From the NCBI GenBank assembly GCA_001643675.2, contig LSRY02000008.1:1240001-1304000 (forward strand): 64,000 nt of DNA, in the 5' to 3' direction. Positions within the stretch are counted from its first letter, which is position 1; every line of letters starts with the position of its first letter. The notes beneath the pieces are model-generated. The model did not search any database. It worked only from the letters and a program-made list of their open reading frames with translations, and was not told where the DNA came from. Positions 15,275 through 54,484 of the stretch are shown in pieces. Made by a program: the position numbers and the translations under genes. Source of the DNA: Monocercomonoides exilis PA203. Lineage: Eukaryota; Protista; Preaxostyla.

Positions 15275-15309
<35 letters not shown>

Positions 15310-20710: not shown

Positions 20711-22475
20711 ACAACTTATATTTCATAAAAGTGAATTATCAAAAAAATATATATGTGCGTGAATATTTAAGTAAGTATAACATTTTTCGGAGTGAAAATT
20801 ATTTCTAAGCAACGTAACTAATAACTTAATTTTAATAAATATGTTTTGAGCTTTGAAATAGTTTTCCTTTCAATCTTCCGCAATAAAAGAATATCAGTGA
20901 AAGTTTTCATTTGATTTTCAAAAGCATTGGATTGATTTCTTAGTTTTTTTGATAAATGCTCAATTTGAAAATTTTATCAGAGATAATTTGACATCAAAAA
21001 GTATCTCCCATTTTCTGCAAATATTATATTATTTCATTAAGTTTTAACAAAAGCTGACTGACGCTTCATGATTTTTAATAGAAAAATATATCAATTGAAT
21101 TTTTATTGGATTATTTTTCAGTTGCATATATTTCGCAACAATAGTGTAACTGGCTTACACTAACAGACACATCCATAATTTTTCTAAATTTCGCAAATTC
21201 TGGAATTTGAGTATTCGTTCTATTTATTATAATAATCATCATTGAATTTGAAGCTTGAATATAGAAAATGTTAGAAATATGTGGAATTAATTTTTGAATC
21301 AACTATTAATTATCCGTGACTTTTCATAAATTTAAAAAAAAACTTGGCTAATGCAACCAATCACAGTGTTTAATTGTTTGTAGCAAGCAGCTTAAATTCA
21401 TTCTTTTTCAATCAATGTATATTTATATGTGTGATTATTTTTGAAATCATGCTTATTTTCTGGGCATAGTTTCATGCCTCATTCCATTTTCATTAACAAT
21501 TTTATTTATATCTAATTGCTTATTGTGTTGTAATCATTCCTAAAACAAACATTCGACAAAAGAAAGGCAATGAACTGTTAACATATTGTCATATTTTTTT
21601 TAGCATTGTATCTTTGAATTTCTAACAAATTTTCAAATCGATGTGGGACAAAATATTTGATTTCAGGCATTTTCAAAGAAAAATTATGCACTTTTGATAA
21701 GCGTTTTGTGTTCAAAAAATTCTATAATAATGGGTTCATTTTTTGACATTCATGGAATGTCACAAAACTTTTTTATTATAACGACTTTGATGGCTATTTA
21801 CTGAAAAGAAAAACCAATTTATTTCGAAATCTGAAAATGATTGATAAAGTTATGAGTGAATCAATTTATTGATGCTTTGTGCAAAAAAAGCTTGAAAGCC
21901 TATATTTTCCCCCATATTATTTCATTAAAAATGTTTAATATCAAAAAGAATCACTCATATAAGAAAAAAATAGTTAATCAAGACAAATGGAGCAGATGTG
22001 GACACAAAATTTAGATATTATTTTTTACGTCACACAATTTTAATATGGTTTTAAAAAAGCATTAAAAAAGATGAGATTTACATGCAAGAGTTTTTTATAA
22101 TAATAATTTACCACAAACAATTCAAAAAATAATCATTTTTTTAATAAAATAAATCAACAAAAGGAGGAAGTGAAGAATTTTTTTGTTTTAAATGAAATAT
22201 TGTCGTGTTTTTGCTAATAAAGTTTTTTAAACAATTGAAAATTTTTACGAGAATGCAAAGCAATTATTAAAATTAACATCTTTCTGTTGAAATAAACGTA
22301 TACAGCAACATTGTTTAAAAACTGGCAGAGAATAAAAGAGAGAGCATGGAATGCGAAATAAAGAAGTGAAATAGAAAGTAGATGAAGATTGACTAGAGCA
22401 CAATAGGGAGTTTATTGAAAAGGAGGAGAGATTTTCTCAGGCAGGCTGTTTGGAGCGAAGGGATATGGAGGGAAG

Positions 22476-24419: not shown

Positions 24420-25875
24420 TTGGCATTTCTTCGTTTGGTCAAGCACAATAACCCCAAAATAGCAACAATGCTTGGCAAGATGTTCCAGCAGCACTCGCCT
24501 CTCAGAGCCATCAAGTCAATCAAGTTCGTCAAGTCCGTCAAGTCCGTCAAGTCTGTCAAGTCTTTCAATAGCGCCAATGAAATCTATTGCCTGCCATTTT
24601 CTTTGATTCTGCACACATTGCTATTTCCGGCACACAACTGAAAGTCACAAATGGAAGGGCATAAAACACAGCGAATGTGAAGGAACTGAAGCAGACACAG
24701 CGAAGAAGAAACTTGCGATAGGCGTAGCAGCCGAAATGCTCATGCCACACTCGGCATCGCTAGTGCCCCTGCGTGCAGAGGGCAGATCGGCCGAATATAT
24801 CCCGAAGCGCAATTCCTATACACATCCACAATAGGTGCCTGAGAAGGAAAGTGATTCTTTCTTTCTTTTCTTTCTTTCTTTTTAATTCCGTTATTTTCAT
24901 AATTATCCGTTAAAAGGCACTCGCTCACTGGAACTTCTTTCTTGACTTTTAACTCTTTGGTTTACGAGTTGGTATGTTTGTTGCCACACACAAAGCAGAT
25001 CACGCAACCGCGCAACCAGCTGCTGATGATTTCGTAAGGAGAGGATGCAAAGAATGAGATTATTTTTGGCTCTTTGCAATGGCAGACCCAATAAGGGCTC
25101 GCATCTTGCCTCAAATTTAATTTATTGAAGTCTTATTCCCCCAGGAAACAAACAACGCAACAAAGACAGCTAAATGTAATAATAAATAAATAAACATGTA
25201 TTCGATAGAAGCAAACAAAATCGATTGTGAGTCGGAAGAAAACCAACGGACATATACGATATAATTTTCTTCACTTCGCAGTTAATGCGAATACACTTTA
25301 TAATGAAGCGCCAACATTGCGTGCACGAAGCCCAAAAACTGAACAAAAGTCCATGAATCGACAACTTCCATATTTCGAAAAATTCAATGAACACAAGGAT
25401 ATCGAGGCAATAAAGAGACGTGCAAAGAAGACACAGAAGGAAAAATATCGCAAAAAATGCTTAAAGGGAATTAAGAATTACAAGAGGCTCGTGACATCTT
25501 GAAAAATAAATTTTAAAAATTATCGTTCATCTTTTTGCATTTCCATTATTTTTTTTCCCCAATAATTGTTTACATAAAATAAATAAATGAAACTCAAAAC
25601 ATATTAAAAATTTTTGAGAGAAGAAGAAAGAGAAGATAGGAAAGAAAAACGGGAATAAAATTTCAAATAAAAATGTCGTTGAAAATATCAAGAAGAAGGA
25701 AAAAATAAAAAAAACATGAGCTATCAAAATGCAACTGCAAAGCAATCACTTTTCAATGCACAAATAATTCCAATGACCGCTCTCTCTCTCATTTCCTTTT
25801 CTATTTTTCTATTTTCTATTTTTTTTCTTTCTCTTTCTTTCTCTTTCTTTCTCTTTCTTTCTCTCTTTCTCTTTC

Positions 25876-26162: not shown

Positions 26163-29100
26163 TCACCCTCTGCATTTCAAGCAGACAACAGGCATCTGCA
26201 TGCTCTTCCCGTTCACTCGCACCGTCTTGCGCGAAATCAACACACATGAAGAAGAAGAAGAAGAAAGAGAAGATGGAGATGATGATTGGAGGCTGTTTGA
26301 GAGGTCTTCGTCCAGCGCATAGTGTCTGCACTCCTCCATCGCCCCCATCAGACACGACTCGTGGTACATGTGCCCACACGCAAACCAGTACAGCTTGTCC
26401 GCCACCACCTTCGGAAGGCCTCTACACACACAGGAGGAGGAGGAGGAAGAAGAAGAAGAAAGAGAAGAAGAAGAATTTAATGAAGTATTTGATGAAGAAG
26501 ATGATAATCTCCCTTCATCTTGTACTGAACTCTTCACAAATGGATTCGGCTTCCCACTCTCAAACATTGCCCCATCCTCAAAATGCTCCACAAACACCAC
26601 ATATCCTTCCTCTCCGCCTCTTCCTTCTCTTTCTCCTGCTCCTCCACTCCCTCCTTCCTCCCCTCCTTCGCTCCCATATATCACACTTTCCTTGTATTTC
26701 CTCAGATATCTGCATTGCTCTTTTAATCCTCTTTCTCCTCCCCTTCTCCCTCCTCCTCCCCCTCCTCCTCCTCCTCCAATGCCTGCTCCACTCAATCCAT
26801 ACACTATCTCTCCACAATACGCACAACACCATTCCTTCTCCTCCCCCCATTTCCCTTCTCTTTCTCTCTCCCTCTCATCTCTTCCTCCTTCCCTTCCTCC
26901 CATTTCTCTTCCTCCTTCTCTCCTCACTCCATCCCCTCCAACATGTATCGCCTTCTTCCTCACCCACACCATCCTCTTCATCAGCTCCACGCTGTCCACT
27001 TTCCCTGCTGCTGCCGCCATCCGCAGCACCGAATGCCTCATCCTCCTCTCGTTCAGCATCCCAATCAGCGCTGGCTTCACCCCAACAATCACTTTCCCCG
27101 CAGGCAGAAGCTGCATCAGCACCTGCGGCTTCATCTTTGCCCCAGCACATGCAATGATCTGTGTCATCAACGGCGCATCTGCCTGCATCCGCGTCATCCC
27201 CAGCACACTCTGCGTTTCCAGCCCCAAGCGCACAAGATGGCTTATTCCTTGCCCTTGCCCTTTCCCTTTTCCTCCTCCTTCTCCTCCATCTCTTTCTCCT
27301 ATCCCTCCTCCAATTCCTCCAATTCCTCCAATTCCAACTCCTCCTCCTTCTCCTTCTTCGTCCTCTCCCATCCCTCTCCCTTCCTCCTCGCACAGCTCCA
27401 CTGCCTGCCCAACATCATGCACACTCAGCACCAGCGTGTCCATCGCCCGCATAAACAGCCCCATCTTCGCCTCAACAAGAGCAAAGCCCACTGCAAACTT
27501 CCTCTCCTCACACAAGCGCAGTGCTTTTGTCACACTGTAGTTTGACGCCTGCTGCAGAAAGGGAAGCAAGCCAGACGGTTTGTACTCGGCATAAAGCAAC
27601 GCCATGATGTCGCCGTATGCACGCACACGGGAAGAGTCAGAAAGGAGAACACGGTCGAGGTATTTGATGGCTCTTTCGGGGTGCTGGGGCATCAGGGAGG
27701 CATAGACATCGTTCACTTCAAAGGCAACGGAGGTGGTGAAGAAGGGGATGGAGCGAGAAGAAGAGGAAGAGGAAGAAGAGGAAGAAGAAGATGATAAGGG
27801 GGAAGGAGAAGAAGAAGGTGATGGTGATGATAAAGGAGAAGGAGAAAGAGAAGGAGAAGATATATCGCTATCAGATGACAATTGAGAAGAATTAGAAGAA
27901 TTAGAATGAGAAGAAGAATTCAAGTTATTCCCTCCTCCTCCACCTCCTCCACCACCACCACTTCCAAAGTTGAATGTGGTGGAAGTCGAATCCACCAGCA
28001 GATGCAGCGTCTTCTCTTCCGACATCTCCCACAGCTGATCCATCACCTTCTTCTCCAGCACAACTGCCTTCACTTCTTCCATGTGCTCCATCGCAAATGC
28101 AAAGACGTCTTTGTCTTTCTTCTCCAGCTTCACCAGAAACATCTCTTTGTGCTCGCCCAGCGTCTTGTGGAGGAACAGGCGTGTGTTCTGCACAGATCGC
28201 ATGAAGCCTTCCATCACCAACGACAAACACCCCATCATCTCCACAAACAGCCACGGCTTGGACTCAAACACCTCAAGTGCATCTGCTATGCTTTTGATGG
28301 CTTCATTGTTTTCTCCTTCTTCTCCTTCTCTTTCTCCTTCTTTTTCTTTCTTTCCTTTCTCTCCTTCTTCAATTGTATTATTCAATGGCATTGGTTGTTC
28401 TTCTCTTTCTCTTTCTTCCCTTCCTTCTTTTTCTCCTTCTCTTCTTCTTCTCCTCCTCTTCTCCAACACCCTCCACACCTCCCTCTCCTCCTCCTCCTTC
28501 TCCTTCTCATTCCTCGGCTGATTCACACACAGAGCAACAAGTTCTTTGAAATGGTTCATTGCCAAAATACATTTTTCCAGTTGAATTTGAAGGCGATTTG
28601 CTTCAGAGCCGATTAAGAGGACGATTTCGCGTGCAGCTTGGTATTCTCTGCGCTGGAGCTCTGTCATTGTCCAGAGGAAGCATTCAGTGAAGAAAGAGGA
28701 AGAGGAAGAAGAGGAAGAAGAGGAAGAAGAAAAAGATGAAGATGAATTAAAATCGGATTCTTCTTCTTCTTCTTCTTCATCTTCTTGTTTTCTTCTTCTT
28801 TCTTTTTCTTCACTTTCTTCATCATTATAATCTTCATCTTCATCATCATCATCATCTAAGTTCAAGAAATAATCTTCATTTTCTTCTTCTTCATCTTCTT
28901 TCTCATTCTCTTTCTCATTCTCTTTCTCTTTCTCTTCTTCATCTTTTCCATTTCGTTTTGTTGATGAAGATTCTATTGTATATTGTTGAGAAGAAGATGA
29001 TGATGAATTAGAAGAAGAATAAAGAGAAGAAGAAGAAGAAGAAGTTAATTTTTTCTTCGAATTCTTCTTTTTCCCTTTCGAAGCCTCAAAAAATGCAGAA

Positions 29101-29555
29101 AGAAGAGAAGAAGATGAAAAACCGGACAAAAATTGGTTTTGTTTGCGTTTGAGGGCAAAAGGGGAATATTTCTTGAGAAATGAATGAGGGAGAGAAAAAG
29201 AATAAGGAAGAGAAGAAGAAGAAGAAAAAGAAGAAGAAGAAGAAGAAGAAGAAGAAGAAGAAGAAGAAAAAGAAGAAGAAGAAGAAGAATTTGATGAAAT
29301 ATTAGAAGAATTATTAAAAGATGAAGAAGAAGAAGAAGAAGAAGAAGAAAGAGAAGAGGATGATGATGATGATGAACTTGTCGAAGCTGAAGAAGAAAGA
29401 AAAGTTGAAATCGAGAAAAATATCAATGATGTTAATTTTGATGTAACAGAAAAAAAAAAGTGTGATAAAAATTGTATATAAAATAAGTGATATTTGTTTA
29501 AAATAAATTTATCAATCGAAAATATTTGCCGGTAAAAACATTTCATTCGTTCCAC
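26163..29555 (-). pseudogene. VPS41: Inverted, 5'-truncated duplicate of VPS41 (C-terminal ~1050 aa, no WD40) fused to an unrelated in-frame N-terminus; 1130-aa open frame
   Basis: Identical to the Vps41 C-terminal half from SSSSLPYSFSLPH to CLKCRG; homology ends in a poly-Ser tract at ~29376. Confidence 0.85.
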
Positions 29556-31161
29556 TTCCTATTCTACTCGTGGTGATCACAACATCCTCCAATGAGAGTG
29601 ACCCACCCCCATCAGACACCACAACCACACTCGACGAAGAAGGATTTATATATGAGTTGCAATCAACTTTCATGTGTAATAAACCAAGGTGACCTGTTGA
29701 CACGCTGAATAGCGTTCCTACAGATAAAAGTGCTCCTGTTCTAATCGAACTCTCCGTCCTCCCTTTCCCAATGACTGAAATCTTCTTTTCTCCAATCTCA
29801 ATTGTTGTTGCCTCGCTTGTGTGATTCCCGTCCAGCAGCGTGATTGTCAAGCTAATCTGCACCTCGCACATCTCAAACGCTTTCTTCACTGTTTTACACG
29901 GATTTGACTCATTTGTCCCACAAAGTGGAGATGAATCATTTCCATTCACTGACACATAAATCGTCTTGTCCTTCAGCCAATCCCACTTTTCCGTGTGCTG
30001 ATATGTCCAACTCCCTGAACTCGACAAATTATATCCATAACATACTCTCTGGCCATCTGTGTTTGTTGTGTAACATTCATGGAACGGATTTCCTGAAGTC
30101 GAAATGACATTGTAATAATCATAATATATCACATCATGCCCATATGGATTGGAGGTTGTTCTGCATTTGCATTCATGGAAGAACAAAAAATAACAATAAA
30201 ATTTATCATTTGGCGCTGTTGCTCGATTTGGATACAATTCCAACCCTCCACCATATCCATTTGCTGTACATGAAATAAATTGAATGCTCCTCATTTTGAA
30301 CTGACTTGGAACAGTCACACAACGCATGCCTCCACCTCCATTGCTTGTCAATGAGCATGAAGTGAAGCAGCAGTCAAACACACACGCACTCTCCCCTCCC
30401 TCATTTTCTGTTTCAATGCAATCAGTTCCTGAAACATTAAAATAATCAAGATAAAGTCCTCCTCCAGCATTATTTGCTTTACAATTCTGGAATTCACATC
30501 CACTGATCCGAACACATGATGAAATCGTATAAACGAACACCCCTCCTCCATATCGATTTTGCGCATTACATGAATTGAACGTGTTATTCACAATCTCAAC
30601 CGATTTAATATTATAGCAACTAATACCTCCACCGCACCAATGCGCGACACATTCCTTGAATGCACAATGCGAAACTGAAACAGCGGCCGACGATTGACTG
30701 TGCATGCAGATGGCCCCTCCGCTTGACACTCCATCAGTCCACGAGTCACTTTCTCCTGTTGTCCTCGATCCGTTCCATTCGCACCAAGTGAATGAATTTG
30801 CTCCATTGAATGTTTCATTCTGTCTGTCTGGCTTCAATGGAACTTCTGCAGTTCCAGTGCATTCAACATTCCTTGTTCGATAACATCCAGTGAATGAGGT
30901 GTTTGAAGCTGTCAGAGAGGCCAAGGGATTGTTGATGGAGGGGACAATCCCGCCATCATATGCATCACAAACAGACGAAAAGGAGCAACTATTCATCAAA
31001 CATGATGTTTGGGATGACGTAGTGGTTGAAGGTGAGCATGCCTCATTTGCTGTTGAGATGTTGAAAAAAGTGAGTCTGGAGAGGGATATTAGGGGTATTG
31101 AAGGGGATGAAAGGAATGGGGCTGATGAGACACAAAAAGAAGAAAAGTGTGATTCGCTCAC
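29512..31161 (-). CDS. G3: Cys-rich beta-helix family protein, 549 aa, truncated at both ends (GTG start)
   Basis: Family motifs as in G1; ends shortly after SLSLEDVVITTS. Confidence 0.75.
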   Translation of the reverse strand: MSESHFSSFCVSSAPFLSSPSIPLISLSRLTFFNISTANEACSPSTTTSSQTSCLMNSCSFSSVCDAYDGGIVPSINNPLASLTASNTSFTGCYRTRNVECTGTAEVPLKPDRQNETFNGANSFTWCEWNGSRTTGESDSWTDGVSSGGAICMHSQSSAAVSVSHCAFKECVAHWCGGGISCYNIKSVEIVNNTFNSCNAQNRYGGGVFVYTISSCVRISGCEFQNCKANNAGGGLYLDYFNVSGTDCIETENEGGESACVFDCCFTSCSLTSNGGGGMRCVTVPSQFKMRSIQFISCTANGYGGGLELYPNRATAPNDKFYCYFLFFHECKCRTTSNPYGHDVIYYDYYNVISTSGNPFHECYTTNTDGQRVCYGYNLSSSGSWTYQHTEKWDWLKDKTIYVSVNGNDSSPLCGTNESNPCKTVKKAFEMCEVQISLTITLLDGNHTSEATTIEIGEKKISVIGKGRTESSIRTGALLSVGTLFSVSTGHLGLLHMKVDCNSYINPSSSSVVVVSDGGGSLSLEDVVITTSRIGSGTNEMFLPANIFD

Positions 31162-34100
31162 AGAAACTCTTCATTTTCCTATTTCTTCTTCCGCTTCTGA
31201 AATGCATATTCCCAAGAGAAAAGCATCTTTTCCCCTTTGTTCCGCTAAATGGAAACGGCATTCAAATGTTCTTCGTCATTAACTTTCCTTAAAATCCCCT
31301 TTTCTTCTGGGATCAAATTCTGCCTTCTCTCCTCATTCTATTCACTTCCATCGCTTTTGAAGGCTTATACAAACGTCCCTATTATCAATTGAAAAACATA
31401 TTTAATATTACAAAAATCTTAAAAATATACAAAAATATTAAATTGCAAAAAAATTTCAATAATAAATATGAAAAGCCCCGTACCATTTTCTTTTCACCAT
31501 CTTCCGCTTCTTCTTCTCAATTTTTCTTGAATTTCTTCTTCTGCTGCATCATCAATTCCTTGATCTCATTTTTGACTTTTAACAAGATTCATCGTATATG
31601 CCTTCCAAAACCTTCAAAAAAATATATCTTCTTCTCTTTTCCTTTCATTTATATTTTGCGTCCGCTCACTCCACCAAACGCCCTCCAATTATTATCTCCA
31701 GATTTCTTTTAATGCATCCAACATCCCCTCTTGACATATTCCTTGTTCATTCATTGCCATTGAGCAATCCTGCAAAAATCCTAATTTCATAAATAATAAT
31801 ATGTGAAGAAAAATTAAAATAATTTTAAAAAAAATGCAAACCTATATCTTTCACAATAACCACCTTTTGCTGACTTTTTCTTTCTTCTTCTTCTTCTTTT
31901 TAAAATATTAACAAAAGCTCAATCCTCTGTTCTGTTTCCACCCAAATAACCTCCACAAATTCCATTCCATAAAAAAACAAGCAATGAAGAAGATTCCATC
32001 CAAAGAATCCCTTCCTATCTCTTGCCAAAATCTTCTTCTTCTTCTCTCCATTTCCCCCCAAAACAACAACAATACCATCCCACCAAATATCACAATCCCT
32101 GTCTCCCCAGCTCCCATTCCCCTTCTTCCAACCAATAAAAATAAATATCTCCATTTCTTTGTATGTCTCTGGCGCAAAACATCTTCTCGTGGTCAGCACC
32201 TCATCTCGATCCATCCCTGTCACGAATCCATCTCCACACCTCTAATGCAAAGTGCCAGTGCTGATGTTCCTTCTTCCCGTCTTCCTCTGCCTCCGCCTCC
32301 AACACTTGCCCCGCAAATGAGAGGCGCGACCAAACTGTCCTTTCAATAAAAAATAAAAAAGATAAAAAAATATCTCTCACTTTTTTTCCCCTTCAACCCC
32401 GCTTCTCTTTCTTATCAAACATAAGCCCACAAAAACTTTTCCACCTTGCTCCGCCTCATATGAACTCCTCCTCTCTCTCTGCATTTGAAAATAAAAAAAA
32501 ATCTCCTCCACATATCTCTCCATTTCTCGTCCTCTCCTCCAATAAATATATTCCATTCGCTTCACCCATCTTCTGCCCTTCTTATCTTCCCTCTTATCCC
32601 ACCTCCAACACATCAAATTCCTTTTCTCAAATAATAAACACAATTCCCACACCTTCCAACTCACAAAAATCGAAAAACAATCCCTCCAAACCTCATCCCA
32701 ATCCATCTCCCAAACATCCATTTTGCCTCTGAAATATCACAAAAATACCTCTTTTCCACAAAAAATACCTTTAATCGTTCCATTCCCTCTCTAAACCCTG
32801 CCTCCTCCAAGAACTCAACTCCTTCACCCCACACCACAAATCCATCCTTTTACAACCACATTGTCTTCATATGCCCATTCAGCCACGGCACATCGAGTTG
32901 TGCTCCTTTTCTTTTGTGGCTCTTATTCGTTATGGAAAATGATCAAGAAATGTCAAACGCTCAGAAACTGTCAACGGGGTCAGATTCCGAAGCTAAAACA
33001 AAGGCAGATTGACTAAGTGAAATATTTCCAGTGAAAAGGTTGAGTATTACAAAAGAATATCTGTTTGATGGAAGATGAAATTGTTCATTTTGATTGTTGG
33101 AATACTGGGGAGCAACAATATTTTCGATGGAAATGCAGAATTTTCAATGTATGTATTTTATATTTTTCTGTTGATTGTGAAGATATTTCTATCCGTATCC
33201 TCTCCAAAGTCGTGATTCAGACAACTTATAAAAAATGGACAATCTATTCTTTGCAGAGCAGAACAGCGAGGAAGGGAGCCAAATGATACCTTACAAATAT
33301 ATTAGAGCCTGAATGTATTTTGTCATAAATATTTAAGTGACTTATTATAGACTCAGCATGCGCGATGGATAGAAATTTGATGAAAAATGAATTTTAATGG
33401 AGCAGAAATCAACGGGGTCGAAAGACATCCAAGGCCAAAAGGAAGAACAGCCAAATTCAATGAAAAGGGAACGTTTTTAAAAAGAGGAAGAGGACATTTT
33501 CATTTTTAAGTTTGTTGGGGAGATTGGGGCAAATGACTGAAACAGGAGATTAGAGACAGCTGCAGCAGAACAAGGTGCCTTTCTTGGGATGAGAAGGGCA
33601 AGACATTGCTTTTATGGACTGAGGGGAGCGATGGAACTGGATTAGATTACTTGGGTTGAGAGGCGAAAATACGAGAAAAACGGACAGTTTGGCGTTATAC
33701 AAGCAGCTGAGGAAAATTACAGGCAAAATGGATTTGAGTCATTTTGCCTTTGTCTTCAGCCTTATGTCATCGAAGGGTTATCCATTGAATCAGAGAACGA
33801 GGCCGTGATGCTGAGAATATCTTCTGACAGAAGGTATATAGTATTCAAACTTGACAATAACATCGCATTCACCATCTTCATCATCTTCATCTCTATCATC
33901 GCCATCATCGCTGTCATTATCTTCTTCTTCATTAAAAATTTTATTGAAGCATTTTTATTATTTGTGTATTATTTGAGTGGAATCAGCGCCAAGAATTGGA
34001 AAAAAGCAAATTTTTTGAAGCAGAACAGAATCGATTTCATTGATGTTGAGATTGGCAGCGGAAACAGAAAAGGCGAATTTTGTTGGCAGAAAAGAACAAT

Positions 34101-34464
34101 AATTTGAGAGGCTTTTGAAGAAGAAGAAAGTGTGTGAAGATTGGCAATAAATATATTTCAGAGTTTGTTTTGTATTATTTTTTTTCTCCAATTTTTCACA
34201 TATTTATTTTATATTTTTGAGGGATTAAGATTTATGGAAGGATGTTTTCAGGGAATGAATGAACATGGGGAAAAGAGCACATTGGATGCATTTCAGAAAT
34301 CAGGCAACACAATTTTTTTGAGAATATCGAAGAATGAGCCAGAGGTATTAAATGAAATGAATGGAAGAGGAGGGCTTTGAAGATTTATGTTGAATTTTGA
34401 AAAAGAAGGAGGGGAATCAACAGAAAAGAATAATCGGAAAATTGAAGAAATGGCTGAAGAAGAA
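31134..34464 (+). repeat. 3.3-kb inter-gene cassette, copy A (copy B 43273-46602 direct; copy C 54485-57818 inverted)
   Basis: Identical or near-identical ORFs at offset ~12138 (e.g. 31984/44121, 33805/45943) and mirrored at 56603-56968 and 54842-55144. Each copy separates a head-to-head pair of beta-helix genes. Confidence 0.95.
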
Positions 34465-34751
34465 ATGTGACAGGAAGTCAAGAAGAAGAAGAAGAAGAAG
34501 AAAAGGAAGAAGATTGCAAAAAGAAAATGGTACTGATTTGTTACATTTCATATTGGATGTTTTTATATATTTTTAATATTTTTTCTTTATGTTTTTATGA
34601 TAATAGGGGTTTTTGCATGTGCATTCAAAAGCGATGAAAGAAAATGGATTTTAGGAAAAAAAGCAGAAGATTTCAACAGAAGAAAAAGGAATATGGGGAA
34701 AGCGGACGATGAAGAAGGGGCAGAAGAGATGGGAAAAGGGATACGGCCATA

Positions 34752-36350
34752 TTGAGGTATTTTGTGAAATTTCACCAAGAGGCAAGGGAAAGAGAAGGAG
34801 GCGAAGATGGAAGTGTTTCGACATGCGAATCTCTTATCTCATCTTCAACAGCATTTCTTTCATCGCCTTCTATACCCCTAATATCCCTCTCCAGACTCAC
34901 TTTTTTCAATATCTCAACAGCACTTGATGTATATTCACCTGCAACCACAATGTCAACCCAAACATCATGTTTGATGAATAGTTGCTCCTTTTCGTCTGTT
35001 TGTGATGCATATGATGGCGGGATTGTCCCCTCCATCAACAATCCCTTGGCCTCTCTGACAGCCTCAAACACTTCATTCATTGGGTGTTGTCGGACAAGAA
35101 ACGTTGAATGCACTGGAACTGCAGAGGTACCATTGAAACCAGACAGACAAAACACAACGGATAATGGACAGAATACATTCACTTGGTGCGAATGGAGTGG
35201 ATCGAGGACAACAGGAGAAAGTGACTCGTGGACTGATGGAGTGTCAAGCGGAGGGGCCATCTGCATGTACAATCTCAATTCTGGAGAACTAACAGTTTCG
35301 CATTGTTCATTCAATGACTGCACTGCATACTACCATGGAGGAGCAATCATGTGCCATGCAATCAAGACGATCAAAATGGTGAGCAACGTGTTCAATTTGT
35401 GCACAGCACAAAACTATGGCGGGGGAGGGGTGTATGCTTGCCAAATAAGTTCATGTGCTCTTATCAGTGGGTGCGACTTCCAGATGTGCAAAGCAAGTTA
35501 CGATGGGGGAGGGTTGAGATTGGACAATTTTGGTGTGTCTGGATCAGGGTGCATTGGGGAAGAAGACGGAGAAGGAGGGAGCTCGTGTGTGTTTGAGTGC
35601 AGTTTCACTTCGTGTTCGCTGAATACAAATTGGGGTGGAGGAATGTATTGCAGAACTGTTCCTGCAGCATTCAAAATGAGGAGCATTCAGTTTATTTCAT
35701 GCTCGGCGATGGGATATGGCGGAGGTTTGCTTTTATATCCAAATCAACAAACAGCATCAAAAGATAGAGTTTATTGTTATTTTCTTTTCTTCCACGAATG
35801 CAAATGCTCAGCCAATTCTCCACTTGGCCACGACATTGTATATCTGGATTATTATAATATCATTTTGAATTCAGACAATCCATTTTATGAATGCTACACC
35901 ACAAACACAGACGAGAAGAGAGCATGTTATGGACATGATTATTCGAGTTTAACGGGTTGGACATTACAGGACACGGAAAAGAAGGATTGGCTGAAGATAG
36001 GGATTTTAAACCGATTTGTGGCATCGAGGGGAGGGAGCGCAGAAGAGTTTTGTGGGGCGAATGAATCATATGCATGCAGAACTATTGGTATTGCTGTTGA
36101 AAAGAGTGTGATTCAAGTGAGCCTATCGGTCACACTGATAGAAGGGGATCACGCAAGCGAAGCAACAACGATTGATATTTGGACAAAGAAGATTTCAGTT
36201 ATTGGGAAAGGGAGGACGGAGAGTTCGATTGAAACAGGAGCCCTTTCATCATCTTCTTCTTCCTTCTCATCTTCATCTACTCATTCTTTCTTCTTCCTGC
36301 AATTTTTCCTCAGAAAAAAAGTGATTCAACAGCTTCGGTTCATTTCATAA
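34752..36350 (+). CDS. G4: Cys-rich beta-helix family protein, 532 aa, mosaic, truncated at a poly-Ser tract
   Basis: Family motifs; 34942-35274 appears identical to G2 22672-23004; ends ETGALSSSSSSFSSSS then diverges. Confidence 0.78.
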   Translation: MRYFVKFHQEAREREGGEDGSVSTCESLISSSTAFLSSPSIPLISLSRLTFFNISTALDVYSPATTMSTQTSCLMNSCSFSSVCDAYDGGIVPSINNPLASLTASNTSFIGCCRTRNVECTGTAEVPLKPDRQNTTDNGQNTFTWCEWSGSRTTGESDSWTDGVSSGGAICMYNLNSGELTVSHCSFNDCTAYYHGGAIMCHAIKTIKMVSNVFNLCTAQNYGGGGVYACQISSCALISGCDFQMCKASYDGGGLRLDNFGVSGSGCIGEEDGEGGSSCVFECSFTSCSLNTNWGGGMYCRTVPAAFKMRSIQFISCSAMGYGGGLLLYPNQQTASKDRVYCYFLFFHECKCSANSPLGHDIVYLDYYNIILNSDNPFYECYTTNTDEKRACYGHDYSSLTGWTLQDTEKKDWLKIGILNRFVASRGGSAEEFCGANESYACRTIGIAVEKSVIQVSLSVTLIEGDHASEATTIDIWTKKISVIGKGRTESSIETGALSSSSSSFSSSSTHSFFFLQFFLRKKVIQQLRFIS

Positions 36351-36875: not shown

Positions 36876-38507
36876 CAAATAATTGAAGGAAAAAGAATCG
36901 CTTCAGCGTGCGAATCTCACTTCTTCTCTTTTTGTGTCTCATCAGCCCCATTCCTCTCATCCCCTTCAATACCCCTTATATCCCTCTCCAGACTCACTTT
37001 TTTCAACATCTCAACAGCAAATGAGGCATGTTCACCTTCAACCACTTCCTCATCTCAAACCTCATGTATGATATACAGCTGCTCCTTTTCATCAGTTTGC
37101 AACGCATATGATGGCGGAATTGTCCCCTCACTCAACAACCCCTTTGCATCTCTGGCTGTTTCAAACACCTCGTTTGTTGGATGTTGTCGGACAAGGAATG
37201 TTGAATGTGGAGGAACTGCAGATAATATTATAAAGCCAGATAGACAGAATGAAACATTCAATGGAGCAAATTCATTTATTTGGTGTGAGTGGAACGGATC
37301 GAGGACGACCGGAACAGAAAATACATGGGAAGACGTTGCTTCAAATGGAGGGGCCATCTGCATGCACAGTCAATCAAACGCATCAGTTTCTATTAAGCAC
37401 TGCTCATTCAATGATTGTTATGCCCATTATGATGGAGGGGGAGTTATGTGTGCAAAAATCAAATCTGTTGAAATTGAAAACAACTCATTCAACTCATGCA
37501 CCGCGCAAAATCAATGTGGTGGAGGGATGTGTATTTATGTGATTTCATCATGTGTTCGGATCAGCGGATGTGAATTTCGAAACTGTTCTGCTTATGGCTG
37601 GGGAGGAGGACTTTATCTCGAAAATTTTCAGGTTTCAGAAACAGGATGCATTGAAACAGAAAATGGAGAAGGGGAGAGTGCGTGTGTGTTTGACTGCAGC
37701 TTCACTTCATGTTCAGTTAAAAATTATTATGGCGGAGGCTTCTTTTGCCGATATGTGCCTGAACAATTCAAAATGAGGAGCATTCAGTTCATTTCATGTT
37801 CGGCATTAAAAGAGGGCGGGGGATTTTGGCTTTATCCTGCTCAATCAAAAGTACCAAATGACGCATTTTATTGTTATTTTTTGTTCTTTCATGAATGCAA
37901 CTGCTCATCCAATCCCCCTTATGGGCATGATATGATATATTACGATAATAACAATTTATATTTATCCCAAAATAACCCGTTCAAAGAATGCTACACAACA
38001 AACACAGATGACCAGAGGGTGTGCTACGGATATGATTATTCGAGTTCAAAAAGTTGGAAATTTCAGTACACAGAAAAGAAGGATTGGCTGAACGAATGGT
38101 CGAAGATTCTGTTTGTGGGGGTAAATGGAAGCGACTCGAGTGGGCTGTGTGGAATGGGCGAGTCGGCACCTTGTAAGACGCTGAGACATGCAGTGGAGAC
38201 GGGTTTGGAAGAGCTGAGCTCATCAATCACGCTGATGAAAGGGAATCACACAAGCGAAGCAACAACGATTGATATTTGGACAAAGAAGATTTCAGTTATT
38301 GGGAAAGGGAGGACGGAGAGTTCGATTAGAACAGGAGCACTTTCATCGATAAGAACGCTATTCAGTGTTTCGACAGGTCATCTGGGGATGAGAAAGCTGA
38401 AGATTGATTGTAACTCAACAGAAGGAACTTCACCGAGTATGGTTGTAGTGTCTTATAGAAGTGGAACACTTTCACTTGTGTCAAGAAGCGAGTTGGGCAA
38501 ATTATAA
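36876..38507 (+). CDS. G5: Cys-rich beta-helix family protein (first ATG 37068, 479 aa; family homology in frame from 36876), truncated
   Basis: The frame is open from a TGA at 36873-36875 through CESHFFSFCVSSAPFLSSPSIP... into the 37068 ORF. Confidence 0.78.
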   Translation, partial: QIIEGKRIASACESHFFSFCVSSAPFLSSPSIPLISLSRLTFFNISTANEACSPSTTSSSQTSCMIYSCSFSSVCNAYDGGIVPSLNNPFASLAVSNTSFVGCCRTRNVECGGTADNIIKPDRQNETFNGANSFIWCEWNGSRTTGTENTWEDVASNGGAICMHSQSNASVSIKHCSFNDCYAHYDGGGVMCAKIKSVEIENNSFNSCTAQNQCGGGMCIYVISSCVRISGCEFRNCSAYGWGGGLYLENFQVSETGCIETENGEGESACVFDCSFTSCSVKNYYGGGFFCRYVPEQFKMRSIQFISCSALKEGGGFWLYPAQSKVPNDAFYCYFLFFHECNCSSNPPYGHDMIYYDNNNLYLSQNNPFKECYTTNTDDQRVCYGYDYSSSKSWKFQYTEKKDWLNEWSKILFVGVNGSDSSGLCGMGESAPCKTLRHAVETGLEELSSSITLMKGNHTSEATTIDIWTKKISVIGKGRTESSIRTGALSSIRTLFSVSTGHLGMRKLKIDCNSTEGTSPSMVVVSYRSGTLSLVSRSELGKL

Positions 38508-41500
38508 ATGGAGAAATATTTATTTATTTTATTAAAATTTCTTTTTGCTCGTTAAACAAAAAGAAGTGACTTATTTATTTTGTAATAATCAATTTTATAT
38601 GAATTTTATTTTGTTTTTCTCCTGCATATTTAACAAGAAAATAGTTTTTGTTTTCTGTTTTAGTGATTGTGATTGTGATTGAAATTCTATTTTTGTTTTT
38701 GGGATTCTTTCTTTTCTTGATTATGCTCCATTTCCACTTTTTTGTTTCGTGTTGAAAGGCTTTGTGCAGCGGGGGGAAAAAAAATCAAAAATAAAAAGTA
38801 AAACAGAAAGAAAATGTGTTAAAGAGCTCTTTGACATTCAGGCAGAATCAAACATTGGAGATCGAGCTGGCTTGCTCCAGTGATTCCTTTTCAGTGTCCA
38901 TTTGTTGAACACAGAAAATGGTGATGGCTCTTTGTGTGTGAAAACCTGTGGAGCATGAGATGGCAAAGCTCCCAGCTGTGAAAAGACAAAGCTCATTCAA
39001 ATTCGAATGGAGAATGAAAAACGCATCAGCGTTGGCAAAATGGCTTCCAATGTGAAAATGAAGTTTTTGTCTTTGACAACAAAATGGAAAACAATGAACA
39101 AACACATGCAACTTCTAATTAGAGTATATTTTCATTGAGTCCTCAAATATCACTTTGACATTTTTTTTTTTTGTTTGATTTTTTTTTGAAACTTTGAAAA
39201 TCTTTTTCTGTGGTCTTCAATTATTTGTGGTTTGAATTAAAAAAATAAATATTAACTTCTTCATGACAATTATTCACCACATTCTCATCTGTGATTTTTC
39301 GAAAAATTTATAAGTGTGAAAAGAAAATAGTAATAAGTTTTATTATAATTTTGGTCCAAGATCAAAGATTTGCTTGTTTTCCCACTTATTTTTTATATCG
39401 GAGGTTTTGAGATTCAACATAACAACGCATCGTTTCATTTTCATAAACTGGATTTGTTTCTTGACTTTTTCATTGTCATTTCATGATTTACGCAAAATAT
39501 CTGGGAGATTCTTTTTGAAATCATAAACATTCATTTATTTTTGAAGAGTTTGGATCAAATCCTAATTTCGATGTCGCTGACGTTCTTTGTTTTATTTTAT
39601 TTTATTTTATTTTTTTCAAATGAATGTCCATTGTGCTTTTATTTGTGAACAACAACCAAAAATTACATGCAATCATCACTTTGATATTCTTTTTTGAAAT
39701 AACTCGTCCTTTCAAGTTTTTATCTTCATTTTATTTTTCTTCATGAGAATATTGAAAATACTGCAAAAGAACATGATTTTTGTTTTGTGAAGAAAACACC
39801 AAAAATAGTTCACGATGACAATTAATTTATGCAGGTGAAATGATGATTTCTCATATTTACTGTGACAAAGAAAAACAACATGTGAAGAAACACTTATTGT
39901 TATAAAAAGCTGACTGATCGAGAAATATCATTCTCTCACATTTAATATGTTTGAAAATACTGGTTTTGATATTGATGTGCAAGGGCTATTCTTTTTGAAA
40001 AGTCGCAAATGCCCAATATTTGGGCTTGATAAAACTATATAGGAAGTATTATTCCCATGTTGCAATTTATCTTATTTAATCCATGAATCAAACTTGAACA
40101 AAATACCCATTTGTTGAAATAATATTGTAAATATAATAGTGAGAAAACAACAATGTTCAAATGCGAATTGAAAAATTGTTATGTTTTATCAAACCAAAAT
40201 ATTCGGAATTTGCGACTTTTCAAAAAGAATAGCCCTTGCACATCAATATCAAAACCAGTATTTTCAAACATATTAAATGTGAGAGAATGATATTTCTCGA
40301 TCAGTCAGCTTTTTATAACAATAAGTGTTTCTTCACATGTTGTTTTTCTTTGTCACAGTAAATATGAGAAATCATCATTTCACCTGCATAAATTAATTGT
40401 CATCGTGAACTATTTTTGGTGTTTTCTTCACAAAACAAAAATCATGTTCTTTTGCAGTATTTTCAATATTCTTATTAAGGAAAATAAAATGAAGATAAAA
40501 ACTTGAAAGGACGAGTTATTTCAAAAAAGAACATCAAAGTGATGATTGCTTGTAATTTTTGGTTGTTGTTCACAAATAAAAGCACAATGGACATTCATTT
40601 GAAAAAAATAAAATAAAATAAAATAAAACAAAGAACGTCAGCGACATCGAAATTAGGATTTGATCCAAACTCTTCAAAAATAAATGAATGTTTATGATTT
40701 CAAAAAGAATCTCCCAGATATTTTGCGTAAATCATGAAATGACAATGAAAAAGTCAAGAAACAAATCCAGTTTATGAAAATGAAACGATGCGTTGTTATG
40801 TTGAATCTCAAAACCTCCGATATAAAAAATAAGTGGGAAAACAAGCAAATCTTTGATCTTGGACCAAAATTATAATAAAACTTATTACTATTTTCTTTTC
40901 ACACTTATAAATTTTTCGAAAAATCACAGATGAGAATGTGGTGAATAATTGTCATGAAGAAGTTAATATTTATTTTTTTAATTCAAACCACAAATAATTG
41001 AAGACCACAGAAAAAGATTTTCAAAGTTTCAAAAAAAAATCAAACAAAAAAAAAAAATGTCAAAGTGATATTTGAGGACTCAATGAAAATATACTCTAAT
41101 TAGAAGTTGCATGTGTTTGTTCATTGTTTTCCATTTTGTTGTCAAAGACAAAAACTTCATTTTCACATTGGAAACCATTTTGCCAACGCTGATGCGTTTT
41201 TCATTCTCCATTCGAATTTGAATGAGCTTTGTCTTTTCACAGCTGGGAGCTTTGCCATCTCATGCTCCACAGGTTTTCACACACAAAGAGCCATCACCAT
41301 TTTCTGTGTTCAACAAATGGACACTGAAAAGGAATCACTGGAGCAAGCCAGCTCGATCTCCAATGTTTGATTCTGCCTGAATGTCAAAGAGCTCTTTAAC
41401 ACATTTTCTTTCTGTTTTACTTTTTATTTTTGATTTTTTTTCCCCCCGCTGCACAAAGCCTTTCAACACGAAACAAAAAAGTGGAAATGGAGCATAATCA

Positions 41501-42922
41501 AGAAAAGAAAGAATCCCAAAAACAAAAATAGAATTTCAATCACAATCACAATCACTAAAACAGAAAACAAAAACTATTTTCTTGTTAAATATGCAGGAGA
41601 AAAACAAAATAAAATTCATATAAAATTGATTATTACAAAATAAATAAGTCACTTCTTTTTGTTTAACGAGCAAAAAGAAATTTTAATAAAATAAATAAAT
41701 ATTTCTCCATTTATAATTTGCCCAACTCGCTTCTTGACACAAGTGAAAGTGTTCCACTTCTATAAGACACTACAACCATACTCGGTGAAGTTCCTTCTGT
41801 TGAGTTACAATCAATCTTCAGCTTTCTCATCCCCAGATGACCTGTCGAAACACTGAATAGCGTTCTTATCGATGAAAGTGCTCCTGTTCTAATCGAACTC
41901 TCCGTCCTCCCTTTCCCAATAACTGAAATCTTCTTTGTCCAAATATCAATCGTTGTTGCTTCGCTTGTGTGATTCCCTTTCATCAGCGTGATTGATGAGC
42001 TCAGCTCTTCCAAACCCGTCTCCACTGCATGTCTCAGCGTCTTACAAGGTGCCGACTCGCCCATTCCACACAGCCCACTCGAGTCGCTTCCATTTACCCC
42101 CACAAACAGAATCTTCGACCATTCGTTCAGCCAATCCTTCTTTTCTGTGTACTGAAATTTCCAACTTTTTGAACTCGAATAATCATATCCGTAGCACACC
42201 CTCTGGTCATCTGTGTTTGTTGTGTAGCATTCTTTGAACGGGTTATTTTGGGATAAATATAAATTGTTATTATCGTAATATATCATATCATGCCCATAAG
42301 GGGGATTGGATGAGCAGTTGCATTCATGAAAGAACAAAAATAACAATAAAATGCGTCATTTGGTACTTTTGATTGAGCAGGATAAAGCCAAAATCCCCCG
42401 CCCTCTTTTAATGCCGAACATGAAATGAACTGAATGCTCCTCATTTTGAATTGTTCAGGCACATATCGGCAAAAGAAGCCTCCGCCATAATAATTTTTAA
42501 CTGAACATGAAGTGAAGCTGCAGTCAAACACACACGCACTCTCCCCTTCTCCATTTTCTGTTTCAATGCATCCTGTTTCTGAAACCTGAAAATTTTCGAG
42601 ATAAAGTCCTCCTCCCCAGCCATAAGCAGAACAGTTTCGAAATTCACATCCGCTGATCCGAACACATGATGAAATCACATAAATACACATCCCTCCACCA
42701 CATTGATTTTGCGCGGTGCATGAGTTGAATGAGTTGTTTTCAATTTCAACAGATTTGATTTTTGCACACATAACTCCCCCTCCATCATAATGGGCATAAC
42801 AATCATTGAATGAGCAGTGCTTAATAGAAACTGATGCGTTTGATTGACTGTGCATGCAGATGGCCCCTCCATTTGAAGCAACGTCTTCCCATGTATTTTC
42901 TGTTCCGGTCGTCCTCGATCCG
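37295..42922. repeat. Palindrome P2: arms 37295-40010 and 40208-42922 (~2.7 kb), tail-to-tail G5/G6
   Basis: Coordinate sums 80218/80217 (38507+41711; 38848+41370). A few SNPs (IGSHF/IGNHF) and a 1-bp homopolymer indel differ between the arms. Confidence 0.96.
39983..40235. mobile_element. 253-bp MITE-like inverted-repeat element at the exact centre of P2
   Basis: GGGCTATTCTTTTTGAAAAGTCGCAAAT...ATTTGCGACTTTTCAAAAAGAATAGCCC, with a further 21/25 imperfect pairing to 40035/40183. Same length and TIR family as the free element at 60379-60631. Confidence 0.8.
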
Positions 42923-43300
42923 CTCCATTCACACCAAGTGAATGAGTTTGCTCCATTGAATGTTTCGTTCTGCCTCCCTGGCTGTTTCTTATTAGTTTCA
43001 GTTCCAGTGCATTCAACATTTCTTGTCCGACAACACCCAACGAATGAAGTGTTTGAGGCAGTCAGAGAAACCAATGGATTGTTCAGAGAGGGAACAATTC
43101 CGCCATCATATGCATCACACACTGATGAGAAAGGGCAGCTGTTCATCAGGCATGTGGTTTGGGATGACGTAGTGGTTGAAGGTGAATAATCTGAAGATGC
43201 TGTTGAAATATTGAAAAATGTTTATTTGGAGAGTGAAACAAGAGATATGGAATGTGATGAGATAAAATTGGAAAAAAGAAGAAAAGTGTGATTCGCTCAC
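41711..43300 (-). pseudogene. G6: chimeric beta-helix gene (5' part = G9, 3' part = G5), split by a 1-bp deletion at ~42336-42340
   Basis: ORFs 42283-43146 and 41711-42346 overlap out of frame (A5 here vs T6 in G5). The N-terminus matches G9 up to WSGS, then matches G5. Confidence 0.85.
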
Positions 43301-46300
43301 AGAAACTCTTCATTTTCCTATTTCTTCTTCCGCTTCTGAAATGCATATTCCCAAGAGAAAAGCATCTTTTTCCCTTTGTTCCGCTAAATGGAAACGGCAT
43401 TCAAATGTTCTTCGTCATTAACTTTCCTTAAAATCCCCTTTTCTTCTGGGATCAAATTCTGCCTTCTCTCCTCATTCTATTCACTTCCATCGCTTTTGAA
43501 GGCTTATACAAACGTCCCTATTATCAATTGAAAAACATATTTAATATTACAAAAATCTTAAAAATATACAAAAATATTAAATTGCAAAAAATTTCAATAA
43601 TAAATATGAAAAGCCCCGTACCATTTTCTTTTCACCATCTTCCGCTTCTTCTTCTCAATTTTTCTTGAATTTCTTCTTCTGCTGCATCATCAATTCCTTG
43701 ATCTCATTTTTGACTTTTAACAAGATTCATCGTATATGCCTTCCAAAACCTTCAAAAAATATATCTTCTTCTCTTTTCCTTTCATTTATATTTTGCGTCC
43801 GCTCACTCCACCAAACGCCCTCCAATTATTATCTCCAGATTTCTTTTAATGCATCCAACATCCCCTCTTGACATATTCCTTGTTCATTCATTGCCATTGA
43901 GCAATCCTGCAAAAATCCTAATTTCATAAATAATAATATGTGAAGAAAAATTAAAATAATTTTAAAAAAAATGCAAACCTATATCTTTCACAATAACCAC
44001 CTTTTGCTGACTTTTTCTTTCTTCTTCTTCTTCTTTTTAAAATATTAACAAAAGCTCAATCCTCTGTTCTGTTTCCACCCAAATAACCTCCACAAATTCC
44101 ATTCCATAAAAAAACAAGCAATGAAGAAGATTCCATCCAAAGAATCCCTTCCTATCTCTTGCCAAAATCTTCTTCTTCTTCTCTCCATTTCCCCCCAAAA
44201 CAACAACAATACCATCCCACCAAATATCACAATCCCTGTCTCCCCAGCTCCCATTCCCCTTCTTCCAACCAATAAAAATAAATATCTCCATTTCTTTGTA
44301 TGTCTCTGGCGCAAAACATCTTCTCGTGGTCAGCACCTCATCTCGATCCATCCCTGTCACGAATCCATCTCCACACCTCTAATGCAAAGTGCCAGTGCTG
44401 ATGTTCCTTCTTCCCGTCTTCCTCTGCCTCCGCCTCCAACACTTGCCCCGCAAATGAGAGGCGCGACCAAACTGTCCTTTCAATAAAAAATAAAAAAGAT
44501 AAAAAAATATCTCTCACTTTTTTTCCCCTTCAACCCCGCTTCTCTTTCTTATCAAACATAAGCCCACAAAAACTTTTCCACCTTGCTCCGCCTCATATGA
44601 ACTCCTCCTCTCTCTCTGCATTTGAAAATAAAAAAAAATCTCCTCCACATATCTCTCCATTTCTCGTCCTCTCCTCCAATAAATATATTCCATTCGCTTC
44701 ACCCATCTTCTGCCCTTCTTATCTTCCCTCTTATCCCACCTCCAACACATCAAATTCCTTTTCTCAAATAATAAACACAATTCCCACACCTTCCAACTCA
44801 CAAAAATCGAAAAAACAATCCCTCCAAACCTCATCCCAATCCATCTCCCAAACATCCATTTTGCCTCTGAAATATCACAAAAATACCTCTTTTCCACAAA
44901 AAATACCTTTAATCGTTCCATTCCCTCTCTAAACCCTGCCTCCTCCAAGAACTCAACTCCTTCACCCCACACCACAAATCCATCCTTTTACAACCACATT
45001 GTCTTCATATGCCCATTCAGCCACGGCACATCGAGTTGTGCTCCTTTTCTTTTGTGGCTCTTATTCGTTATGGAAAATGATCAAGAAATGTCAAACGCTC
45101 AGAAACTGTCAACGGGGTCAGATTCCGAAGCTAAAACAAAGGCAGATTGACTAAGTGAAATATTTCCAGTGAAAAGGTTGAGTATTACAAAAGAATATCT
45201 GTTTGATGGAAGATGAAATTGTTCATTTTGATTGTTGGAATACTGGGGAGCAACAATATTTTCGATGGAAATGCAGAATTTTCAATGTATGTATTTTATA
45301 TTTTTCTGTTGATTGTGAAGATATTTCTATCCGTATCCTCTCCAAAGTCGTGATTCAGACGATTTATAAAAAATGGACAATCTATTCTTTGCAGAGCAGA
45401 ACAGCGAGGAAGGGAGCCAAATGATACCTTACAAATATATTAGAGCCTGAATGTATTTTGTCATAAATATTTAAGTGACTTATTATAGACTCAGCATGCG
45501 CGATGGATAGAAATTTGATGAAAAATGAATTTTAATGGAGCAGAAATCAACGGGGTCGAAAGACATCCAAGGCCAAAAGGAAGAACAGCCAAATTCAATG
45601 AAAAGGGAACGTTTTTAAAAAGAGGAAGAGGACATTTTCATTTTTAAGTTTGTTGGGGAGATTGGGGCAAATGACTGAAACAGGAGATTAGAGACAGCTG
45701 CAGCAGAACAAGGTGCCTTTCTTGGGATGAGAAGGGCAAGACATTGCTTTTATGGACTGAGGGGAGCGATGGAACTGGATTAGATTACTTGGGTTGAGAG
45801 GCGAAAATACGAGAAAAACGGACAGTTTGGCGTTATACAAGCAGCTGAGGAAAATTACAGGCAAAATGGATTTGAGTCATTTTGCCTTTGTCTTCAGCCT
45901 TATGTCATCGAAGGGTTATCCATTGAATCAGAGAACGAGGCCGTGATGCTGAGAATATCTTCTGACAGAAGGTATATAGTATTCAAACTTGACAATAACA
46001 TCGCATTCACCATCTTCATCATCTTCATCTCTATCATCGCCATCATCGCTGTCATTATCTTCTTCTTCATTAAAAATTTTATTGAAGCATTTTTATTATT
46101 TGTGTATTATTTGAGTGGAATCAGCGCCAAGAATTGGAAAAAAGCAAATTTTTTGAAGCAGAACAGAATCGATTTCATTGATGTTGAGATTGGCAGCGGA
46201 AACAGAAAAGGCGAATTTTGTTGGCAGAAAAGAACAATAATTTGAGAGGCTTTTGAAGAAGAAGAAAGTGTGTGAAGATTGGCAATAAATATATTTCAGA

Positions 46301-46602
46301 GTTTGTTTTGTATTATTTTTTTTCTCCAATTTTTCACATATTTATTTTATATTTTTGAGGGATTAAGATTTATGGAAGGATGTTTTCAGGGAATGAATGA
46401 ACATGGGGAAAAGAGCACATTTGATGCTTTTGAGAAAGCAGGCAACACAATTTTTTTGAGAATATCGAAGAATGAGCCAGAGGTATTAAATGAAATGAAT
46501 GGAAGAGGAGGGCTTTGAAGGTTTATGTTGAATTTTGAAAAAGAAGAAGGGGAATCAACAGAAAAGAATAATCGGAAAATTGAAGAAATGGCTGAAGAAG
46601 AA
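43273..46602 (+). repeat. 3.3-kb inter-gene cassette, copy B
   Basis: Direct repeat of 31134-34464. Confidence 0.95.
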
Positions 46603-46787
46603 TTTTGACAAAAATTCGAGAAGAAGAAGGAGGAGGAGAAAAGGAAGAAGATTGCAAAAAGAAAATGGAACTGGTTTTTCATATTTTGTATTACATTTTA
46701 AATATTTTTTATATTTTTTCTTTATATTTTTAATTGATAATAGGGACTTTTGCATGAATATTCAAAAGCGATGAATGCGAATGGAAT

Positions 46788-54299: not shown

Positions 54300-54484
54300 A
54301 TTCCATTCGCATTCATCGCTTTTGAATATTCATGCAAAAGTCCCTATTATCAATTAAAAATATAAAGAAAAAATATAAAAAATATTTAAAATGTAATACA
54401 AAATATGAAAAACCAGTTCCATTTTCTTTTTGCAATCTTCTTCCTTTTCTCCTCCTCCTTCTTCTTCTCGAATTTTTGTCAAAA

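Follow-up and report, generated by a model that had tools for sequence, protein, structure and literature searches.

A 333-bp tract that is identical in two otherwise divergent gene copies of Monocercomonoides exilis PA203 very probably records a recent ectopic segmental gene conversion. The tract lies in a 64,000-nucleotide stretch of contig LSRY02000008.1 (the window; positions are counted from its first base), within one of nine copies, G1 to G9, of part of the predicted ectodomain of a family of much longer receptors. Considering the family as a whole, we tentatively propose that such conversion patches act within an array of open-frame ectodomain fragments that may serve as a shuffled donor reserve for full-length receptors. 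The donor role is the weaker step of this explanation and sets our confidence in the whole.

Direct sequence comparison bore out the initial annotation, which had matched by eye positions 34942 to 35274 of G4 (34713 to 36350, plus strand) with positions 22672 to 23004 of G2 (22419 to 24419, plus strand). The match comprises exactly 333 bases and cannot be extended on either side. Because G1 (16760 to 18760, minus strand) forms one arm of an inverted repeat and G2 the other, a third copy of the tract is present in G1 (18175 to 18507, minus strand). The divergence that had been claimed for the flanking parts of G2 and G4 was also evident, since 311 of 1057 columns differed outside the tract and none of the 333 within it (1390 ungapped core columns). 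At third codon positions, 147 of 352 sites differed elsewhere and 0 of 111 in the tract, so that these otherwise divergent paralogues are joined by a sharp tract of identity that includes synonymous sites. The tract region is not invariant because the same 333 columns contain 60 to 92 differences in pairs with G5, G7, or G9 and 30 differences between G3 and G2 or G4. Selective conservation as the cause of the tract was therefore ruled out by both the identical synonymous sites and the differences in other pairs. The G2-G4 run spans 142 polymorphic sites, compared with a longest run of 25 in 10,000 column permutations of six window copies (G1, G6, and G8 were excluded as arm duplicates). The right end of the tract directly follows the conserved GGAICMYN codons. 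M. exilis is reported to be monoploid in the accessible part of PMC6759080, so the exchange must be non-allelic, and an allelic mix-up was likewise ruled out.

In a family alignment of 226 sequences, the tract ranked third among the long identical runs and was private to G1/G2 and G4. This privacy bears on the idea that the tract is the scar of a reciprocal double crossover, or of template switching while inverted repeats formed, instead of one-way conversion. Such events are suggested by G6, a chimera that changes partner cleanly and only once where two palindromes overlap, and by the fold-back rearrangements that divergent, spaced inverted repeats cause in yeast (accessible part of PMC10164571). 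However, no reciprocal product was found among the 226 sequences, and the tract ends coincide with no palindrome boundary, making this explanation extremely improbable.

For one-way conversion, linkage suggests G1/G2 as the likely donor and G4 as the likely recipient, as the 3′ half of the tract tracks G2-type rather than G4-type downstream sequence. Over 201 relatives, likeness to this half correlated with likeness to the downstream flank of G2 with a rho of 0.37, compared with −0.07 for the downstream flank of G4; these relatives are not independent, and the p value was therefore set aside. The nearest downstream relative of G4 (95% identical) is only 70% identical in the 3′ half of the tract, and the two nearest relatives of this half run on downstream as G2 does. 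Zero differences in 333 bases limit later divergence to at most 0.9% (95% bound), indicating that the copying event was recent.

Shorter exact DNA patches connect further copies, including 131 bp between G2 and G7 (46758 to 49115, plus strand), 106 and 69 bp between G2 and G3 (29512 to 31170, minus strand; listed for G3 as patches with G2/G4), and 77 bp between G4 (36154 to 36230) and G5 (36876 to 38507, plus strand; patch at 38251 to 38327). All five peptide patches quoted in the initial annotation were found in the genes it had named, and the likeness it had drawn between G5 and G7 was recovered in the middle coils with support of 100/99. No single tree fits all regions of these copies. A G2-G7 clade with support of 95/96 in 23701 to 23981 is rejected in 23005 to 23340 (p-AU 7e-68), as is the G3-G9 clade found in the former region. 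The G2-G4 clade was rejected in one of four regions outside the tract (p-AU 0.033), with values of 0.064 to 0.20 in the other three. Patches also extend beyond the window: G3 and protein P0010 have 93 identical residues in common, and G9 (57780 to 59351, plus strand) contains four stretches of 47 to 78 residues, each identical to a different protein outside the window.

We extended this analysis to the family at the protein level, using a core alignment of 226 of 243 sequences that covered at least 300 core residues (121 short sequences, six window copies included, and 105 long sequences; three window-derived models were dropped). Among pairs less than 85% identical, exact runs of at least 50 residues were present in 63 of 7246 fragment-fragment, 8 of 12683 fragment-receptor, and 7 of 5451 receptor-receptor pairs, compared with at most 2, 1, and 0, respectively, in eight column permutations, a procedure that does not model block-wise conservation. 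We observed 172 identical runs of at least 40 residues, and 106 of these were private to at most four sequences (80 fragment-fragment, 14 fragment-receptor, and 12 receptor-receptor). Private tracts touch 82 of the 121 short and 27 of the 105 long sequences. For 74 tracts the contigs are known, and 34 of these connect proteins from different contigs (source and contig lists were typed by hand). The median overall identity of fragment pairs, 63% compared with 57 to 59% for other pairs, inflates the fragment tract counts. Per pair, tracts between a fragment and a receptor are far less common than those between two fragments, some of the former sit in blocks common to many members, and we found no private tract between a window copy and a full receptor. 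Tract ends spread over the whole core, with observed ends biased to conserved blocks by construction. Together with the incongruent trees, these private tracts uphold the segmental exchange that had been proposed for the family.

Much of the identity between neighboring copies reflects palindrome arms rather than short patches, as three chained large inverted repeats occupy 11.8 to 59.4 kb of the window. The first, P1 (11779 to 29376; center about 20590, spacer 20552 to 20627), holds G1 and G2 in its arms, and includes a partial inverted Vps41 copy; over 12032 to 20551 its arms differ by 2 substitutions and 3 indel events. The second, P2 (36955 to 43262; center 40109), holds G5 and G6 (41711 to 43320, minus strand) and is near-identical inward from 37295/42922. 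The third, P3 (41702 to 59391; center about 50540), holds G7 and its palindromic twin G8 (51972 to 54329, minus strand), is near-identical inward from 42915/58176, and contains 25 substitutions, mostly clustered. G6 belongs to P2 and P3 simultaneously at their overlap and is a chimera, with a 5′ part identical to G9 and a 3′ part identical to G5; the switch, at 42915 to 42922, is in register and within a conserved block. A head-to-head spacer of 3.25 kb (S1, 31134 to 34382) recurs at 43273 to 46520 and, inverted, at 54567 to 57818. The three copies are 1 to 7 substitutions apart, while most flanking gene cores differ by 20 to 30%. With ends about 66 to 68% alike, this spacer forms an old, degenerate inverted repeat in its own right; its halves have opposite GC skew, and a role as an invertible or bidirectional control region is possible. 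Profile searches did not support the presence of a kinase or membrane remnant, which had been suspected there by eye.

The palindrome centers are AT-rich islands of 23 to 30% GC. At the P2 center, an inward-facing pair of 23-bp motifs (39988 to 40230) was observed, with further matches at 50624 to 50646 and at 60384 to 60626, where the pair forms a free short inverted repeat in a fourth island; a weaker version lies at 20484 to 20695, and pair spacing is 200 to 250 bp. This motif has 5 matches compared with 0.01 expected, and a 20-bp motif has 9 (at 19728, 21431, 39505, 40694, 49871, 51172, 60821, 61684, and 61917) compared with 0.11 expected; since both patterns were derived from the window itself, these chance figures are optimistic. 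Possible identities of the 23-bp pair are a recombination signal, an origin, and the remnant of a small transposon. Because the 20-bp motif is confined to the four islands, 590 to 860 bp from the three palindrome centers, the islands resemble diverged versions of a single element. Y-chromosome palindromes are known to undergo arm-to-arm conversion, and the palindromes described here may have arisen by fold-back at pre-existing short inverted repeats, followed by conversion between arms.

The arms also bear on whether the tract, and perhaps the palindromes too, are assembly or polishing artefacts. Near-identical arms would be in line with such errors, and the published long-read assembly, from which we assume the window originates, used Canu with corMinCoverage 0 and ten Pilon rounds, has a duplication ratio of 1.067 relative to the older assembly, and is described by its authors as unevenly polished in multi-copy regions (accessible part of PMC8767320). 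Artefact is nevertheless made highly improbable, indirectly, by family-wide tracts in an older annotation and by arm differences that match paralogues, though less firmly so for the G4 tract taken alone. Both partners of 78 of the 106 private tracts are present in EukProt, which we take as older than the long-read assembly because its models differ from those of NCBI for the same locus tag; the G2 protein, spanning most of the tract, is also present there. Differences between arms are clustered and match third paralogues, with G8 carrying G2-type bases at 52662 to 52671 that G7 lacks and spacer S3 agreeing with S1 at sites where its own arm partner, S2, differs. Furthermore, the palindromes have non-palindromic spacers of 76 to 310 bp and imperfect inner arms, the 23-bp motif is found in a free inverted repeat as well, and G6 switches partner in register. 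The sole annotated G4 model found, P0102, starts downstream of the tract and matches G4 letter for letter there. Exact look-ups in the protein collection returned none of ten window proteins (G1, G3, two G4 starts, G6, G7, G8, G9, and full and partial Vps41), and none of the 23 matches listed in a short-model search exceeded 75% identity to G4; these 23 were left out of the tract counts.

The window contains other genes beside these copies. A Vps41 homologue with long poly-Ser inserts lies at 8891 to 15022 (plus strand), and an inverted copy of its 3′ half at 26163 to 29376 (minus strand) falls within P1; the outer 250 bp of the two copies differ in repeat length and two bases. A kinesin motor gene (PF00225) with long low-complexity inserts occupies 1 to 8415 (minus strand) and is open at the window edge. 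At the other end, a tyrosine recombinase frame (62753 to 63820, minus strand; PF00589, E 3.9e-08) precedes a perfect inverted repeat of 35 bp and a direct repeat of 42 bp (62164 to 62477), an arrangement that we take to resemble the end of a DIRS-like retroelement.

Although the initial annotation listed the copies as genes and its patches among them held, the copies proved to be fragments of much longer proteins, with three pairs being inverted-repeat arms. Relatives of G4 that bear names are M. exilis proteins, and our searches found 163 short matches of 266 to 847 residues and 123 long matches of 1081 to 3085 residues, the latter on many contigs. Kinase Pfam matches were present in about 75 of the best 120 of the 123 long relatives (hand count) and a transmembrane peak in 26 of the 30 first-ranked ones. 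Two long relatives examined whole begin with a signal-like segment and continue through a long ectodomain and a single transmembrane helix near residue 2650 to a kinase C-lobe. PF07714 matches only the C-lobe in long relatives (profile positions about 157 to 257; P0122, P0125, P0123, and P0142). Because the match is limited to the C-lobe, many of the family members counted as tyrosine kinases may be pseudokinases. The tyrosine-kinase-like family is the largest in M. exilis, with 332 predicted kinases, and the full-length relatives, which carry the PF07714 C-lobe, belong there by annotation (accessible parts of PMC6759080 and PMC8767320).

Receptors of this family are roughly 2,300 to 3,100 residues long, and G1 to G9 are roughly 450- to 600-residue pieces of the predicted ectodomain. 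Alignments of six full receptors to the window are confined to receptor residues about 200 to 885, with G1 covering about 200 to 820 and G7 reaching about 880. Profiles of the N-terminal, middle, and C-terminal parts of the receptors found nothing further in the window, upstream regions of the copies contained no part homologous to the receptor N terminus, and no signal peptide, transmembrane helix, or kinase domain of the receptors was detected for G1 to G9. A weak match to receptor residues about 1500 to 1560 (about 35% over 60 residues) lies downstream of G2 (24909 to 25091, plus strand) and G1 (16088 to 16270, minus strand) and is possibly a remnant of a deleted receptor part.

Truncation follows a common pattern across the family. 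Short relatives end at receptor residues 700 to 824 in 105 of the best 120 of 163, positions that are partly shaped by the search length limit. The G5 tail recurs in P0076 on another contig and the G9 tail in P0043; recurrence of truncated tails on different contigs indicates that truncated units are copied as such. Among the matches listed, and with contigs distinguished by their length, four contigs carry 83 of the 104 contig-assigned short matches, three of these contigs have no contig-assigned long match and the fourth has one, and the long matches are scattered across some forty other contigs; because the matches are ranked by likeness to G4, the contig of G4 itself is favored in this clustering.

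One alternative is that conversion is real but the fragments form a pseudogene field without a donor role, generated in passing by an unstable family and still open solely through youth or through refreshment by intact genes. Consistent with this, flanks are decayed (the G2 frame opens at an in-frame stop after a decayed 5′ flank), signal peptides are missing, exchange is mostly fragment to fragment, and G6 is frameshifted by a 1-bp deletion at 42340. Trichomonas transmembrane cyclases similarly combine gene conversion with about 46% pseudogenes (accessible part of PMC2914791). In contrast, the frame is open over the core in eight of nine window copies, and the ninth, G6, has only that single deletion, in a T run; in random-substitution simulations, the frame stayed open in 0 of 5000. 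G5 and G9 have a common truncation end, yet dS between them is about 0.8 with dN/dS about 0.3. No close full-length parent of the window copies was found at searched sizes of 266 to 847 and 1081 to 3085 residues (848 to 1080 and above 3085 fell outside the search), and the best full-length matches were 68 to 76% identical. All 15 pairs of six window copies had a dN/dS of 0.27 to 0.43, which could be inherited from functional parents. At the 90 most variable columns, dN was 0.73 and dS 0.85, not dN > dS (six sequences, near saturation). On balance, we consider a pseudogene field unlikely.

Open frames and purifying selection would equally suit short copies that are expressed genes themselves, encoding short beta-helix proteins perhaps secreted via a spliced non-homologous 5′ exon, with conversion diversifying a tandem family. 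M. exilis genes contain about 1.9 introns each (accessible part of PMC8767320), shared promoters or 5′ exons could reside in the near-identical head-to-head spacer, and the short relative P0013 begins with a signal-like hydrophobic stretch. However, upstream regions lack homology to the receptor N terminus, most annotated short models have an internal methionine as their start and a variable tail of low complexity, and the predicted G4 model is poorly defined outside residues about 75 to 375. We regard this possibility as distinctly unlikely and tentatively favor the donor reserve over both it and the pseudogene field.

The predicted G4 model is a right-handed parallel beta-helix of stacked coils, with ten-residue pLDDT means mostly 80 to 98 over residues about 80 to 330. 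VIA-align gave its best matches to beta-helix enzymes and tailspikes (Z 19.2, rmsd 3.4, 247 aligned residues, 8% identity), consistent with the pectin-lyase-like parallel beta-helix, whereas Foldseek returned weak rows only (best E 0.044). Coils end in hypervariable residues ahead of each glycine run, and in the model these ends may form a binding face. Chlamydia Pmp proteins have FxxN/GGA(I,L,V) repeats and an autotransporter barrel. The FxxC...GGG/GGAI repeats of the G4 coils recall the former, with Cys in place of Asn, and the barrel is absent from the window family. Such likeness of a predicted fold carries no implication of enzyme or adhesin function.

Our results are consistent with a model where homologous repair would take a 70 to 80% identical paralogue as template, with repair patches starting and ending in short conserved blocks and 50 to 400 bases copied between fragments. 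If palindrome arms served each other as templates in the same way, arms and spacers would stay near-identical, and G6, the chimera of G9 and G5, would result. Transfer of a patch between a fragment and a full receptor would be a rarer outcome and would alter the variable face of the receptor beta-helix. A still broader picture, which we consider doubtful, is one of chromosome-scale archives of silent ectodomain cassettes, organized as palindrome chains centered on a conserved AT-rich element, in which segmental conversion rewrites the binding face of at least 100 dispersed receptor-like pseudokinases.

No description of mosaicism, fragment arrays, or palindromes in M. exilis was found in the largely open-access literature searched. 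The accessible parts of the kinase-family papers (PMC6759080 and PMC8767320) are silent on the ectodomain, on truncated arrays, and on mosaicism and palindromes, and that of PMC10703272 mentions neither palindromes nor pseudogenes. Conversion patches in gene families are ordinary; what is unusual is their location in clustered open-frame fragments, apart from full genes, that represent the most variable part of the largest annotated family in M. exilis. Should the fragments prove to be donors, the diversification by cassettes that is known from pathogen coat antigens would reach oxymonads and a multi-locus receptor family, serving a signaling receptor repertoire rather than a single coat antigen. 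It would also account for some of the unclassified repeats linked to kinases in the genome paper.

Segmental conversion underlies the variation of trypanosome VSG and Borrelia vlsE, the two systems to which the initial annotation had likened this family. In Trypanosoma brucei, antibody selection acts on the VSG coat protein, which is monoallelic and whose mosaic genes are built from an archive; the resemblance of M. exilis lies in a patchwork drawn from a large archive in a host-associated protist. Like silent cassettes, the M. exilis fragments are clustered, truncated, open-frame copies of a variable region. Borrelia vls is likewise a contiguous array of truncated, mostly open-frame pieces of a central variable region, with segmental exchange, a head-to-head layout with inverted repeats nearby, and variation concentrated at variable positions (accessible part of PMC11499132). 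In contrast, vls has one expression site beside the array, cassettes about 90% identical to that site, and one-way flow (same source), whereas M. exilis has more than 100 dispersed full-length relatives, and therefore no evident single expression site, with the nearest being 68 to 76% identical and exchange mostly among fragments. The comparison with VSG and vlsE holds for mechanism only. Anaplasma msp2/p44 functional pseudogenes, about 100 clustered truncated copies, are similar as donor candidates but serve a bacterial outer-membrane antigen with a single expression cassette (accessible part of PMC2789410), unlike the eukaryotic type-I membrane receptor-like kinase family found here. The nearest metamonad parallel is the transmembrane adenylyl cyclase family of Trichomonas vaginalis, an expanded receptor-like family with truncated copies and gene conversion. 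In the accessible part of its description (PMC2914791), there is a single clear conversion case and the copies are dispersed, often with stops, whereas in M. exilis tracts occur in 82 of 121 short copies, which are clustered and open-framed and have common truncation ends.
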